Shown here piece by piece: positions 7,104-63,853 of a stretch of 64,000 nucleotides of DNA. Position numbers and translations under genes: made by a program. A model generated the notes under the pieces. The model saw only the letters and a program-made list of their open reading frames with translations. It was not told the origin of the DNA and made no database searches. Source of the DNA: an uncultured Alphaproteobacteria bacterium (GTDB taxonomy: Bacteria > Pseudomonadota > Alphaproteobacteria > UBA8366); NCBI GenBank assembly GCA_963711215.1, contig CAVQDH010000014.1, positions 178,628-242,627 on the forward strand, read 5' to 3'. The number at the start of each line of letters is the position of its first letter. The stretch's first letter is position 1.

Positions 7104-7292
7104 CCGCCGGGCGCGCCGACGCGCGCCTGGGCTCGGTCCCTTCCCGGATCTTTCCCGAATAACGTGAGTCGTCTCGAGCCGCCGGCGGGCCCCCGGCGGC
7201 GCCGATGCCTGTTCCCGGCGGCCCCGATTTGAGCCGCGCCGGCATTTGTGATTTGTCTGAAGGGAGACGCGATTTTCGGGGGAGCCCATCCA

Positions 7293-8488
7293 GTGAAGGT
7301 CTTGCAAGGCATCGTCGTCGCCGATTTCAGCCGCGTGCTGGCGGGTCCGTTCTGCGCCCAGCAGCTTGCCGACATGGGCGCGGACGTGATCAAGGTGGAG
7401 AGCCCCGACGGCGACGAGAACCGCGGCTGGCAGCCCCAGCTCCCCAACGGCAGCAGCAGCAACTACGCCAGCGTGAACCGCGGCAAGCGCGCCATGACGC
7501 TCGATCTCAAGTCCGCGGCGCGGCGCCTGGAATCCTGCGCCGGCTGATCGAGCGGTCGGACGTGCTGCTGCACAATTTCCTGCCCGACACCGCCGCCCGG
7601 CTCGGTCTGACCTACGACGCCGTGCGCGCGATCAACCCGCGCCTCGTCTACTGCACGATCAACGGCTATGGCGAGAAGGGTGCGCTGCGCAACAAGCCGG
7701 GCTATGACCTGATGGTGCAGGCCTTCTCCGGCACGATGTCGACGACCGGCTTCGAGGGCGGCCCGCCGGTGCGCTCGGGCGTGTCCTTCATCGACATGGC
7801 GACCGGCATCGCCGCCTATGGCGCGATCGTCAGCGCGCTGTTCGCGCGCGAGCGCACGGGCCAAGGCGCCTGGGTGCACGGCTCGCTGCTCGAGACCGCG
7901 GTCTCCCTGCTGGGCTATCACGCGATCTCCTGGCTTCAGGCCGGCAAGCTGCCGGTGAAGCAGGGCTCCGGCAGCGCGAGCTCGGTGCCCTACCAGGCTT
8001 TCCAGTGCAGCGACGGCTACCTGCTGATGGGCGCGCCCAACGACGCGGCGTGGCAGCGCTTCTGCGCGGCGCTGGAGGACCCGGCGCTCGCCGCCGATGC
8101 GCGCTTCGCCACCATCCCGCTGCGCGTCGCCAACCGGGACGTCCTGATCCCGATGCTGGAGAAGCGTTTCCTCGAGAACACCGTCGCCCATTGGGTCGAC
8201 CGGCTCGAAAAGAAGGGCGTGGCCGTCTCGCCGTTGCATTCGCTCGATCAGGTCTTCACCCATCCGCAGGTGCTGGCGAACGACATGCTGACCCATGTCA
8301 CCGACGTCGACGGCACGCGCCTGCCGCTCGTCGGGATGCCCTTCAAGATGGAGGCGGCGGACGGGCCGGTGCGTCCGGCGGAACGCCCGGTGCCCCGCCT
8401 CGGCGCGCATACCGACGAGATCCTCGGCGACGTGCTGGGCTATTCCGCCGACGAGATCCGCGCGCTGCGCGACGCCGGCGCTGTCTGA
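7293..8488 (+). CDS. CoA transferase family III (CaiB/BaiF), one frameshift near 7520
   Basis: GTG start; DFSRVLAGPFC..LADMGADVIKVE, NRGKR in the first frame; DVLLHNF.P and GYDLMVQA in the second. Confidence 0.9.
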
Positions 8489-9477: not shown

Positions 9478-10540
9478 TCACGGGTCCATGGCCCCGTCGA
9501 TGCGGTCGGGGTCGGGTTCGATTTCGCGCTCGCTCTCCGTTTCGGGCTGCGCCGCCGGGGCCGGCTTCTTTTCCTCTGGCTTGGCGGCGTCGCCCTTCGA
9601 GGAGGCGAAGACGCTGAGGAACCATTCTTCGAGCGGCGTATGGCGGACCGGGTGGAAATCCGCCGGCGGCGGGCCGCCGTTGGCGCCCGAGATCTTGCGC
9701 CATGCTTCCTCGACCTCTTGTGCGCTGAGGGGCTCGATGTCGGCGAACATGTTTTCCATGGGACTGCCGTATACCTCCGGGCGACGCTCCGGCGCTTTCG
9801 GATCGACCGAGCCGGGGATCGGGCTGTGGTCGGCAAATAGATCGTCGAAGACCGAATTCCGCGTAGTATTTCGGATCGTCCATCGGCCCGTTCGGACCGA
9901 CCGAGCCGGGGATGGGGCCCTGGTCGGCGAATACGTTGTCGAAAACCGTTTCCCCGTAATATTTCCGATCGTCCATCGGCCCGTCCGGACCGACGATGCC
10001 GTTGCCCCAGCGCGGATCGTTGGCGAAGTATTTCTTCAGCGCCGCGGCTTTTTCCAGAGGCGTCCAATGCCTTTTTGCCGGCGGCGGCGCTGCGGCGGCA
10101 GGCGGCGCGGTGGTTTTCGCTGCGGGCGCTTGTGTCGTTTCGAGTTGCGGCGTCCTTGCCGACCTCGGCACGGGCGGCGCCGGCTTCCGGTGCGGCACCG
10201 GCACGGCTGCGATTTCCGGGAGCTCGAGCTGTTTCAGGTCCAGTGGTCGCGGCTCGGGAACCGGCTCCGGCGGCTTGGGCTTTTCCTCGGGCTTCGGCAG
10301 GGCGACGGTCGGCAGCATGGGCGCAAGCGCGGGTTTCGGCATGGCAACCGACGGCAGCGGCTGCCGCGCTTGCGGCGGCGGCGCGGGCGGCGGCATGCGC
10401 ACCACGATGGGCCGGGGCGGCGGCAGGTGCGGCGCCGGGACCGGCTGCAGCAGCGACAGATAGAGGCCGGCGCTCACCGCATGGATCGTTGCGGCGACGA
10501 GGATTGCAAGGCCGATATGCCATTCGCGGATGTCGTCCAT
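9478..10540 (-). CDS. TonB/TolA-like membrane-anchored Pro-rich protein with novel C-terminal repeats, ~353 aa; +1 frameshift near 9856
   Basis: N-terminal TM with His (AATIHA), long Pro-rich linker, last gene of exbB-exbD-exbD operon; repeat register fixes the frameshift and joins ORF 9478-9759; length 1063 = 3n+1. Confidence 0.75.
9735..10000 (-). repeat. Intragenic ~93-bp (31-aa) tandem repeat: two clear copies and one degenerate
   Basis: VGPDGPMDDRKYYGETVFDNVFADQGPIPGS / VGPNGPMDDPKYYAESVFDDLFADHSPIPGS / VDPKAPERRPEVYGSPMENMFADIEPL; DNA repeats such as GATCGTCCATCGGCCCGT and GACCGAGCCGGGGAT. Confidence 0.85.
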
Positions 10541-10545
10541 CGCGT

Positions 10546-10942
10546 CTATCGGCTCGTAATCAGCCGCACCTCCGTTATGCCGGCCGCCCGAAGCCGCTCC
10601 ATCAGCGCGATCACGCGGTCGGAGTCCGCGTTACGGTCCGCCTTCAGCCAGACCGGTAGTGGGGATTGCGCGCCGCGCCGCATCAAGCGCGATCTGCGAC
10701 GCCAAACCGGCGTCGTCGACTTCCTGTCCGTTGAGCGCGAGGCGGCCGTCGGCGGACAGGGCGATGGTCAGGCCCGCCCGCTCCGCTGCCGCGGTCGCCG
10801 CGTCCGGCGGCGCCACGGGGAAGGGGATATAGACGCTGACGTTGGCCAGCAGCATGAAGAAGATCAGCAGCAGAAAGACCACGTTGATCAGCGGCAGCAG
10901 GGTCTCCGGCGCCTCGCGCCGCCGGCTTCGGCGAAGGTTCAT
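10546..10942 (-). CDS. exbD: ExbD/TolR biopolymer transporter; +1 frameshift near 10665
   Basis: LLPLINVVFLLLIFFML TM; shifted frame gives VWLKADRNADSDRVIALMERLRAAGITEVRL*; length 397 = 3n+1. Confidence 0.85.
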
Positions 10943-11385
10943 GGCTTGGTCTCCTCCGGCGCCCGCATCAGGGAGACGCTCTTCACGGGGATAGCCGAAA
11001 GATCATCGAGCAGGGTGACGATGCGCTGCAGCGGCACGCCGCGCGCGGGCCGGACGACGACCGGCCGGTCCGCGGCGGCCTGCAGCGCCGTCCGCAGCAG
11101 GCCCGGCAGCGCCGCGGCCGTCGCCGGCTTCTGATCCAGCATCACGCCGCCATCCTTCTGGATATCCACCAGCAGGGCCGGCGGGCCGGTATTCTGGTCG
11201 CTGGCGCGGACCGGCGCCCCGAGCAGGATCGCGTCCCAGCTCGACGCGGTGGCGCTCAGCATGAAGAAGACCAGCAGGATGAATACCATGTCGATCAGCG
11301 GCGTCAGATCGATCAGCCGCCGCCGGCCGGCGCCGCTTTCAATCCGAATGGCCGCTCCGGGCCGGCTGGACAGTCGCGTTCTCAT
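10939..11385 (-). CDS. exbD: ExbD/TolR biopolymer transporter
   Basis: DLTPLIDMVFILLVFFML with conserved Asp. Confidence 0.9.
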   Translation of the reverse strand: MRTRLSSRPGAAIRIESGAGRRRLIDLTPLIDMVFILLVFFMLSATASSWDAILLGAPVRASDQNTGPPALLVDIQKDGGVMLDQKPATAAALPGLLRTALQAAADRPVVVRPARGVPLQRIVTLLDDLSAIPVKSVSLMRAPEETKP

Positions 11386-12079
11386 GCTCTTCCGGGCTCC
11401 TCGACAAAGCCGCCGTGAATACTTTCGTCGCCGCGTCCTCCATGTCGTGCGCCAGCCGATCCACCCGGCGCTCCAGCCAGGTGGCGGCGGCCACGGTGGG
11501 GATGGCGATCGTCAGCCCGACCGCGGTCGTCAGCAGCGCTTCCCAAATGCCACGGGACAGGAGGCTGGCGTTTACTTGGTTGCCGGCGGTCTCGAGCTGC
11601 TGGAAGGCGGCGATCATGCCCAGCACCGTTCCGAACAGCCCGAGCAGCGGGCTCAGCGTGCCGATGACCTCGAGTCCGCGCAGATAGGAGCGAAGCCGCT
11701 CGAGATAAAGATTCGCGACCCGGACGACTTCCTCGCGCACGATGTCATCAGGCACCCGCGGCCGCGCCTGGGCGCGTATCGCGGTCTCCAGCACGCGGGC
11801 GATCGGATTCCGCGCCGGGGCCAGCGCCGCCAGCGCCTTTTGCGGCTCGCCCTGCCGGTGCGCCGCGAGCGCCGGCTCGATGAAGCGCCGGTCGCCGATC
11901 CGCAGCGTCCAGAACTGGTACAGCTTGACCAGGATGATCGCCATGGCGACGACGGACATGGCCATCAGGACCGCCACGACCGGGCCGCCCTCGGCGACCA
12001 GCCAGTCGATCCGCGCCAGCAATGCGTTGAGCAGAGGCGCCGGCAGCCCAGCCATGCCAGTGGAAGCGTGCGACTCCAT
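11339..12079 (-). CDS. exbB: MotA/TolQ/ExbB proton channel protein
   Basis: SPLLGLFGTVLGMI and GIWEALLTTAVGLTIAIP motifs. Confidence 0.92.
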   Translation of the reverse strand: MESHASTGMAGLPAPLLNALLARIDWLVAEGGPVVAVLMAMSVVAMAIILVKLYQFWTLRIGDRRFIEPALAAHRQGEPQKALAALAPARNPIARVLETAIRAQARPRVPDDIVREEVVRVANLYLERLRSYLRGLEVIGTLSPLLGLFGTVLGMIAAFQQLETAGNQVNASLLSRGIWEALLTTAVGLTIAIPTVAAATWLERRVDRLAHDMEDAATKVFTAALSRSPEEHENATVQPARSGHSD

Positions 12080-12133
12080 GTCTTCGCTCCGACCTTGAGG
12101 CGTCCGAGTGCGGCCGACAGTCGGCCGACTGGA

Positions 12134-12150
12134 TTTAGGTTGATCCTAAA
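12134..12150. promoter_or_regulatory. 17-bp palindrome upstream of exbB, resembling the Irr iron control element
   Basis: TTTAGG-TTGAT-CCTAAA; ICE consensus TTTAGAA-N3-TTCTAAA, 3 mismatches. Confidence 0.4.
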
Positions 12151-12488
12151 ATGCAGGAGACGAAATCTTATCCGAGTATGCCACTCTACCGCTACTCGAA
12201 TTTTCGAGGCGCGGAAACAAGGGGATGGGGCGCCGGCTACCGCTGACCCGCATGCGCCAGATGGCGCCGGTCGGCGGCGCGACGCGGTGCGCCGGCAATC
12301 TGTCCGTCAGACAACCGTCAGGGGATTGCATTAGGCTGTTATTACACGGAATGCGGAAAGGGCTCTTAATTCCGCAAAATTATCGCACGAGAACGTGATG
12401 GTACGGTTGCGTGGTACTGTGCGATGTGGCAAGGATTCAAGATTACTAGCGGCATTGTAACAAAAAAATGGGGAATCTCGTGATAGAC

Positions 12489-12656
12489 ATGCCGGACCGG
12501 CAACTGCAGGTCCTCGTGCGTGCTCATTTGGACAAATATGGCGAAGCAGCGACAGCAAACGCCCTTGAACGCGCCAACGCGCTCTCCGAGTTGGGGGACG
12601 ACGCAGGCGCGAAAATGTGGCAGCGCATCGCCGAGATGTTGGCCAGGGTCGAATAG
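12489..12656 (+). CDS. Small helical hypothetical protein, ~55 aa
   Basis: H..KYGEAA..NALERA..L..LGD..GAKMWQRIA pattern, of the kind seen in small alphaproteobacterial proteins; start could be 12468. Confidence 0.6.
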   Translation: MPDRQLQVLVRAHLDKYGEAATANALERANALSELGDDAGAKMWQRIAEMLARVE

Positions 12657-13233: not shown

Positions 13234-13309
<76 letters not shown>

Positions 13310-24058: not shown

Positions 24059-24187
24059 TGCGGCGACGCATCGCTAGTTACGGACAGGGGCGCGCCATCC
24101 GGCGCCGCCCCTGGCCGTGTTTGACGTGATTTAGAGATTTAGAAGTGTGTAACCGGGATTTTCCCGGTTCATAGTCGGGGATCAAAA

Positions 24188-28363
<4,176 letters not shown>

Positions 28364-33592: not shown

Positions 33593-34063
33593 ATGTCGAG
33601 ACGTCGTCGCGCCGAAAAGCGCACAATTCTTCCGGATGCCAAATACGGCGATCTGATCGTCAGCAAGTTCATGAACAACGTCATGCTGGACGGTAAGAAG
33701 TCGGTCGCCGAGCGCATCGTCTACGGGGCGCTTGAGCTCATGGAGAAGCGCGCGGGCGGCGACCCGGTGAAGGCGTTCCACGACGCGATCGAGAATGTCC
33801 GGCCGCACCTCGAGGTGCGGTCGCGCCGTGTCGGCGGCGCAACCTACCAGGTGCCGATGGAAGTCCGGTCGGAGCGCGCGCAGGCGCTCGCTTTCCGCTG
33901 GATCATCCAGATGGCGCGCGGACGCAACGAAAACACGATGACCGAGCGGCTGTCCGCGGAGCTTCTAGACGCGGCGAACAACCGCGGCGCAGCGGTCAAG
34001 AAACGGGAAGACACGCACCGGATGGCGGAAGCAAACCGCGCTTTCTCGCATTACCGCTGGTAA
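33593..34063 (+). CDS. rpsG: 30S ribosomal protein S7
   Basis: [24 protein letters not shown]. Confidence 0.98.
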
Positions 34064-34088
34064 CAACCCGCTACTGGATCGGATAGCT

Positions 34089-36162
<2,074 letters not shown>

Positions 36163-61574: not shown

Positions 61575-62276
61575 TGGCAATCAAGCGATTTTACCGCCAG
61601 GTGGCGGTCGAGAGCGGCGAGGCGGGACATAGCGTCAGCCTGGACGGACGCTCCGTCCGCACGCCGGCCAAGGCGCCCTTGCTGCTGCCCACCCGCGCGC
61701 TGGCGGAGGCCATCGCCGCCGAATGGGACGCCCAGCAGGACGAGGTCCAGCCGCACACGATGCCGCATGATGCAGCTCGCCAGCACGGCGATCGACCGTG
61801 TCCTGCCGCGGCGGGACGCGGTGATCGCCGAGATCGCGAGCTACGCGGAGACCGACCTCCTGTGCTACCGCGCCGACGGGCCGACCCCCCTGGTGGCGCG
61901 CCAGGCGACGCAATGGCAGCCGGTGCTGGACTGGGCCGCCGATACCTTCGACGCGCCGCTGTCGGTGACGGAAGGCGTGATGCCGGTACCGCAGCCGCCG
62001 GCCGCGATCGCCGCCCTGCGCGCGGCCGTCGCCGACTGCGACGCTTTCGCGCTCGCCGCCGTCTACACGCTGACCGTGGTCAGCGGCTCGCTGGTCCTGG
62101 CGCTCGCCGTCCGGGACGGCGAGATGGACGCCAACCTGGCGTGCGACGTCAGCCATATCGACGAAGAGTGGCAGGCCTCGGAATGGGGCCGCGACCCCGT
62201 CGCGGAAAGCCGGCGCGACCGGGCGCGCGCCGAGATCCTGTCGGCGGCGGGTTTTCTGGCTCTCTTGCAGGGGTGA
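61574..62276 (+). CDS. ATP12 F1-ATPase chaperone family; +1 frameshift near 61766
   Basis: [20 protein letters not shown] / [31 protein letters not shown]; length 703 = 3n+1. Confidence 0.9.
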
Positions 62277-62319
62277 AGCCCGGGTGCTATGCGGGGCTGC
62301 GGCAGGCGGAGGCGCGGCG

Positions 62320-63853
<1,534 letters not shown>

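Follow-up and report, generated by a model that had tools for sequence, protein, structure and literature searches.

What would an ExbB/ExbD-type motor be doing in the cell envelope when the protein placed to carry its force ends in a domain seen in neither TonB nor TolA? The question is raised by four tightly packed minus-strand genes at positions 9478-12079 of a 64-kb stretch of DNA (hereafter the window) from the genome of an uncultured alphaproteobacterium, whose assembly consists of 14 contigs and has a marker completeness of 90%. To our knowledge, 5:2 motors of the ExbB/ExbD type have long been regarded as dedicated to TonB and TolA alone. Our analysis suggests that these genes, in the order exbB, exbD1, exbD2 and a fourth gene for a transducer, probably encode an envelope machine that is real but rare, in which a proton-driven motor is combined with a TonB/TolA-type transducer carrying a new head, and that the genes themselves are probably intact.

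The motor part of the operon could be recognized without difficulty (Table 1). The overlap is 47 nucleotides (nt) between exbB and exbD1 and 4 nt between exbD1 and exbD2, and a gap of 5 nt separates the exbD2 stop from the ATG of the fourth gene. These coordinates and overlaps, together with the matches to PF01618 and PF02472, bear out the initial annotation of the locus, made from the letters alone, which had proposed a tightly coupled operon of exbB, an exbD with LIDMVF and a second exbD with LINVVF. The best NCBIfam matches of ExbB are tolQ at 88.5 bits and exbB at 60.8 bits, both far under the respective cut-offs, and its C-terminus agrees with that of the intact orthologues at two other loci, namely L017, which lies in a metagenome-assembled genome (MAG) labelled Alphaproteobacteria bacterium (G012), and L018, a metagenome contig of 2.26 Mb. 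In all three orthologues of ExbD1 the helix Asp is present (alignment A5), and in all three loci ExbD2 has Asn at this position, within LINVVF or LINIVF, so that the proton-carrying Asp of PF02472 is absent there. The exbD2 gene is interrupted in the window, its two open reading frames (ORFs) matching PF02472 at profile positions 8-81 and 92-126; the N-terminal piece scores 46.3 bits and the C-terminal piece 22.4 bits, just below the cut-off of 25.4 because of the frame break, as compared to 87.6 bits for the intact ExbD2 of L017. A tblastn search with the L017 and L018 proteins likewise gave an alignment to the window that spans two frames. Initially a single frameshift had been reported for the operon, in the fourth gene; that break is indeed there, near 9856, but the one in exbD2 had been missed. 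On the operon, PADLOC returned sub-threshold ZorA noise for ExbB and nothing else, and upstream of exbB neither a riboswitch (Rfam) nor a promoter (promoter scan) was found, with terminator-like sites at the level seen in shuffled sequence.

The fourth protein has no Pfam family, and its relatives had to be gathered in several steps. When 1.84 billion representatives were searched exhaustively by HMMER with its C-terminal 126 residues, five matches were obtained: the ORF of the window, P0002, a 48-residue remnant, and two repetitive proteins (P0003 and P0004), which were dropped as low-complexity matches. The closest database homologue, P0002, is a 194-residue fragment with 56% identity, and with it we found an intact homologue of 407 residues in G012. 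Word-index searches seeded from the G012 homologue and from P0010 brought in further members, for a family of 24 clusters (25 when P0002 is included). None of these has a Pfam domain, and their source names, if any, read 'hypothetical protein'. The family alignment (A3) holds 27 rows, 20 of which are N-terminally complete and are the basis of the counts given below for the N-terminal half.

This N-terminal half resembles TonB. A His-containing membrane anchor and a Pro-rich linker of ~120 residues had been noticed initially, and both are found, as His20 and as a linker of 124 residues (Table 1). The helix His is kept in 20 of the 20 complete rows, within a conserved family N-terminus that reads DDIRxWH...AATIH...YL, and in 19 of the 20 a proline-flanked hydrophobic run follows ~20 residues past it, a count that rests on a sequence pattern of our own and is a pattern match only. 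In a study of E. coli TonB (PMC10907165), the D-box is described as a proline-flanked strand at residues 43-54 that is gripped by the ExbD dimer at 2:1, and the spacing from His20 to the strand at residues 42-52 in the window protein is the same. In the AlphaFold2 (AF2) model of P0010 the helix lies at residues 6-31, with a predicted local distance difference test score (pLDDT) of 86-92, and the region equivalent to the linker is of low confidence. The NCBIfam TonB model matches residues 10-152 weakly, with an E-value of 0.0015 and over the helix and linker only; a sequence profile search of the PDB retrieved TonB (9ddo_F) only at E 0.31, again in the helix and linker region. The proline-rich linker is variable among the family members in A3; a second linker motif, LDLxQ(F/L)E.LP...VPVPxxKPAPP, is common to the window protein and most of the three-module members.

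The C-terminal half is where the protein departs from TonB and TolA. A significant match to TonB_C or TolA-III had been named beforehand as a possible refutation of a new head, and no match to TonB_C, TonB_2 or TolA was found at E<=10 among the six-frame ORFs of the region, which are equally without a match to any other Pfam family at that threshold. TonB_C (PF03544), TonB_2 (PF13103) and TolA matched 0 of the 27 alignment rows at E<=1, and the same domain library does detect TonB_C and TonB_2 elsewhere in this genome. Two Pfam matches that recurred among the rows, RHH_ERCC6L2 (17 of 27) and DNA_ligase_A_N (16 of 27), were all below the cut-offs and were judged to be noise. A search of 5.8 billion proteins with residues 155-229, the repeat region by itself, yielded nothing useful, and the ESM Atlas gave no usable match.

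What follows the linker is, in order, RHWTPLEK...GIVGP, the tandem repeats, EPLSAQEVEEAWRKI, RHTPLEEWFLSVFASS and an acidic tail. Tandem Repeats Finder gave the repeats a score of 289, with 84% matches, a period of 94 and a consensus unit of 93 nt, equal to 31 codons, and this output and the translation together contain all that had been described at first, namely 31-residue repeats bracketed by RHWTPLEK and RHTPLEE and followed by an acidic tail. The initial annotation had further proposed that a repeat domain replaces TonB_C. The absence of TonB_C, TonB_2 and TolA matches agrees with this, but the conserved unit of the family, as read from the alignment, is not the 31-residue repeat; it is a module of ~75 residues formed by the two flanks of the array (RHWTPLEK...GIVGP and EPLSAQEVEEAWRKI), into which the repeats are inserted. 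The family motifs of this module are LTPxEK/ER..LL..YY..DPRW..GI.DP and PLTVQE.EE.L.K (alignment A3), with EPLSAQEVEEAWRKI aligning with PLTVQEVEE, and its G, P, D, T and Q columns are near-invariant over the 25 clusters. A hidden Markov model (HMM) built from module 2 of 19 proteins, with the window sequence excluded from the build, finds three modules in each of these 19 proteins and two in P0006-P0009, and recovers both halves in the window. Judged by this profile, the window carries one such module, interrupted by the array of 31-residue repeats, and the C-termini of the family hold one to three copies with a predicted helix/two-strand make-up.

Parts of the stretch are also held by nine runs from five other metagenome studies (soil, wetland), with four of the runs compared in detail, and these data bear on whether the repeats exist at all. 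The assembly is error-prone, and the De Bruijn contigs of other runs end at 9862, within the array, as one might expect if the repeats were an artefact, collapsed or duplicated during assembly, of a gene that truly has none. We consider this highly improbable, since contigs of runs X1 and X2 span 9862-9984 with no gaps, the copies differ from each other at 16% of positions, and the same unit is found three times in frame in P0002, twice in P0016 and once in P0006-P0009.

Table 1. Features of the four-gene operon, in window coordinates
Feature	Positions	Strand	Evidence
exbB/tolQ-like gene, proton-channel subunit	11339..12079	-	246 aa; PF01618 E 2.2e-30, 105.4 bits vs cut-off 22.9
exbD1/tolR-like gene, helix Asp (LIDMVF)	10939..11385	-	148 aa; PF02472 E 2.1e-20, 73.5 bits
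exbD2/tolR-like gene, Asn at the Asp position (LINVVF)	10546..10942	-	frame break between 10691 and 10686
TonB-like force-transducer gene (predicted)	9478..10540	-	~353 aa read through the +1 break near 9856; three-frame translation; P0002 aligns over both frames
N-terminal transmembrane helix, residues 9-31, with His20	10448..10516	-	helix His in family rows
D-box-like strand PRPIVVRMPPP, residues 42-52	10385..10417	-	our own pattern; binding is predicted only
Proline-rich linker, residues 32-155, predicted to span the periplasm	10076..10447	-	42 Pro in 124 residues (34%)
Module, N-terminal half (RHWTPLEKAAALKKYFANDPRWGNGIVGP)	9971..10072	-	module HMM on residues 163-192, E 1.3e-7
Tandem 93-nt (31-residue) repeats, 2.2 copies, in the module loop	9790..9994	-	Tandem Repeats Finder
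Module, C-terminal half (EPLSAQEVEEAWRKI)	9691..9735	-	module HMM on residues 16-56 of the C-terminal piece, E 1.5e-4
Amphipathic helix RHTPLEEWFLSVFASS	9598..9645	-	conserved with P0002
Acidic low-complexity tail ending MDP	9481..9597	-	12 D+E vs 6 K+R in the last 39 residues

Structural comparison gave no match of the module to a solved fold. The AF2 model of P0010 shows three similar units, in each of which two helices enclose a two-residue strand pair, with a block pLDDT of 85-94; for the model overall the mean pLDDT is 68.7 and the predicted template modelling score (pTM) 0.34. In the model of P0002, the helix matching the N-terminal half of the module has a pLDDT of 82-91 and the helix of the C-terminal half one of 80-90, with values of 63-74 for the helices at 137-160, in the region of RHTPLEEWFLSVFASS. 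A Foldseek search with the predicted modules against the PDB gave no match at E<=0.001, and the best Z-scores of VIA-align against 48,161 chains were 4.6 and 3.4, which are noise by the guide of that tool. TonB and TolA chains are absent from the rows of both searches, although the absence of a weak match is no proof of a different fold.

The observations that weigh against a working envelope machine concern both the state of the operon in this lineage and the transducer itself. Two frame breaks within 2.6 kb exceed the window average of at least seven in 64 kb; none of the compared contigs bridges 9856, so the case for an error at that frameshift is indirect, nor do these contigs cover 9712-9815. 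In the sister genome G001, which is collinear with the window on both sides, 226 unrelated bases (L010 6098-6323) replace window positions 9559-12473, and all that remains of the fourth gene is its final ~80 nt, at 87% identity; G002 has no match to the operon. The operon is therefore dispensable, and, with the family also being patchy in its order, it is conceivable that we are looking at a decaying pseudogene cluster, in which the two frameshifts are genuine and the machine has ceased to function. Against this, the window has breaks of the same type in essential genes: rpoB (24143-28363) is spread over four frames, with Rpb2 domains 1 / 2, 3, 45 / 6 / 6 and 7, and fusA (33969-36162) over two, for three breaks and one break respectively, so that four of the breaks fall in two essential genes and assembly error is to be expected in the operon as well. 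For exbD2, a ~98% identical contig of run X3 aligns without a gap to 10689-11066, at 7 differences. A comparison by hand of the 22 letters left over shows them to agree with the window except for one missing base at the break and three substitutions; being one base shorter at this site, the contig has an ExbD2 frame that reads through in that relative. For the fourth gene, the frame shifts where the second repeat copy is one base longer than the first, and past the break this second copy parallels the first codon by codon; the repeat period of 94, as compared to the 93-nt consensus unit, likewise speaks for an assembly error. The GC content at third codon positions is 0.84-0.89 in the broken gene pieces, and the only indels in related contigs are in-frame ones of 3 nt, at 9591 and 10371; the X1 contig has the deletion at 9591, and four of its five listed tail substitutions are at third codon positions. 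We thus regard pseudogene decay as unlikely. Both breaks, near 10688 in exbD2 and near 9856 in the fourth gene, are most likely indel errors of the assembly, and the genes would then probably be intact in the organism. As for the sister genome, its loss has the look of a lineage-specific deletion, and the 226 replacement bases have no more than chance matches to the operon.

As regards the transducer, the SHLS motif, which we take to occupy positions S16, H20, L27 and S31 in E. coli numbering, is reduced in the window protein to its His (A16, H20, Y27, L31). According to Williams-Jones et al. (2025, PMC12204202), this SHLS/His motif is what the helices of TonB and TolA use for docking on the motor. 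The 31-residue repeats may be disordered, because the P0002 model assigns them, as well as the tail, a pLDDT of only 40-59, and the genomic context comes from three loci only (the window, L017 and L018), two of which are close relatives. In none of the three is a gene for an outer-membrane or periplasmic partner conserved beside the operon. Such features might indicate that the fourth protein is an inner-membrane accessory or scaffold of ExbB/ExbD, or a degenerate TonB without a head, with a C-terminus that is largely disordered in the window version and no reach to the outer membrane. We find this improbable, as the conservation of the modules over all clusters speaks against a degenerate C-terminus, the linker is of TonB-like length, and a D-box-like strand is present. 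Moreover, between the orthologues of L017 and L018 the ratio of nonsynonymous to synonymous substitution rates (dN/dS) is 0.11 for the modules, 0.27 for the linker and 0.47 for the part with the helix and D-box; these values are rough because dS is near saturation, and they mark the modules, approximately, as the most constrained part of the transducer. A force transducer with a new head thus continues to be the reading we favor.

The transducer family is rare. It was present in 2 of the 91 genomes of the order, and in samples of the class and of the phylum (401 genomes each, with at most four candidates scored per genome) it was found only in the genome of the window. A profile search with alignment A2 retrieved, among genomes, the G012 locus only, in addition to three loci from metagenomes, of which two were of insufficient length for neighbouring genes to be seen. 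The family is known from alphaproteobacterial MAGs and from soil and wetland metagenomes only. Where upstream sequence was available, as in L017 and L018 (two of two other loci), the order exbB, exbD1 (Asp), exbD2 (Asn) and transducer is intact, with overlapping genes, and beyond these four genes nothing is shared between the window and either locus. The window operon is flanked by an enoyl-CoA hydratase gene and by a small DUF6961-like ORF. This ORF, of 62 residues (12468-12656), lies between the operon and a tRNA-Thr gene (13234-13309), matches DUF6961 weakly (E 8e-4, below the cut-off) and is conserved in G001. In L017 and L018 a membrane protein with a BTAD domain is encoded ~480 bp upstream of exbB (L017:5860-8040, L018:5699-8023). 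In this protein of 726-774 residues, a BTAD transcriptional-activator domain at the N-terminus is accompanied by a membrane segment and a coiled-coil-like stretch, and the C-terminal units are duplicated. We did not count this protein as part of the system because none is encoded beside the window operon, and the nearest relative in this genome lies on another contig, with 35% identity over the N-terminal part only.

The operon is not redundant with the housekeeping systems of the genome. A separate Tol-Pal locus (ruvB-tolQ-tolR-tolA-tolB...cpoB) lies on contig C2 at 784-794 kb, and there are a flagellar motA gene and a TonB locus, with the sole PF00593 and TonB_C matches of the genome on contig C8; because of these, the operon represents an extra motor. 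The window itself contains no TonB-dependent receptor, tolB or pal, just as the initial annotation had said, these being located on C8 and C2. The only canonical TonB_C match of the genome is itself split over two frames (G000:C8:36175-36412), and the neighbouring match to a TonB-dependent receptor (L024:6797-7996) has an open frame of only 400 aa, covering profile positions 102-436, and is probably broken too. Within the window, a family III CoA-transferase gene (7163-8485) is broken near 7525-7544, with profile positions 1-74 and 77-366 in different frames and an intact orthologue in G001. At 61575-63850, an ATP12 ORF spans profile positions 61-123 only and a carboxyl-transferase ORF 102-493 only, and the N-terminal parts of both may sit in other frames.

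Comparison with known systems shows both how close and how distant these are. The transducer is like TonB in lying beside exbB and exbD, in a helix whose His20 sits where TonB has its essential His, in a D-box-like strand ~20 residues on (PMC10907165) and in a Pro-rich linker of comparable length. It is unlike TonB in having no TonB_C by sequence and no match by predicted fold, and in not keeping the S, L and S of SHLS; there are, in addition, two different exbD genes, one without the Asp, and no TonB-dependent receptor nearby, and a canonical TonB locus exists elsewhere in the genome. With TolA it shares the same three-part plan, and its motor genes score slightly better on the tolQ/tolR models than on those of exbB/exbD, with all scores far below the cut-offs; unlike with TolA, there is no match to the TolA C-terminal domain or to TonB_2, and the operon has no adjoining tolB, pal or cpoB. 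On sequence grounds, then, the fourth protein shares the N-terminal features of both and fails as either on the defining C-terminal domains, and as TolA also on gene context. Closest among published concepts are the force transducers headed by a vWA domain (Williams-Jones et al. [quoted passage not shown] The same operon logic is combined in our case with an unrelated head, for whose small helical modules, present in one to three copies, neither Pfam nor the PDB has a match, and the VWA family is absent from the Pfam matches of the 27 rows; the present operon also lacks a TPR gene upstream, and the family is far rarer. Full-text literature searches, which did not cover supplements, found no description of the ~75-residue module.

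How such a machine might work can be proposed from the families to which its parts belong. ExbB would form the ring of the proton channel, and this ring would enclose a mixed dimer in which ExbD1 supplies the proton-carrying Asp and ExbD2 has Asn instead. The transducer would dock on ExbB through its membrane helix with the conserved His, and the ExbD dimer would grip the D-box-like strand and pull the proline rod, which would span the periplasm. The proton gradient would in this way be converted into a pull, through the linker, on a periplasmic or outer-membrane partner bound by the modules. With a new domain in place of the receptor-binding domain of TonB, the transducer probably pulls on a partner other than that of TonB, one that would be neither a TonB-box receptor nor TolB and would not be encoded next to the operon. 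A more ambitious interpretation, which is possible and which we hold only tentatively, is that the TonB/TolA and the vWA-headed transducers are joined here by a third kind of periplasmic force transducer driven by protons, with an array of the new modules as its head. The ExbD1(Asp)/ExbD2(Asn) dimer would in that case be obligate, leaving a stator with one proton-carrying site instead of two, and the machine might energize an envelope process, distinct from both TonB-dependent uptake and Tol-Pal, in Alphaproteobacteria of soil.

Work on this system will have to face practical limits, as the family is rare and occurs in uncultured bacteria only, and the window copy sits in an error-prone assembly. 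On the other hand, the module is small and well conserved, which makes it tractable for structure determination and for partner fishing, and with the conserved Asp/Asn pair of ExbD paralogues, nature provides a test of the need for two protonatable sites in such a motor. If our reading is true, this would be a second, unrelated head on a chassis of helix His, D-box and proline rod, and the chassis itself would be a general adaptor by which proton-motive energy may be delivered to varied targets in the periplasm and the outer membrane.

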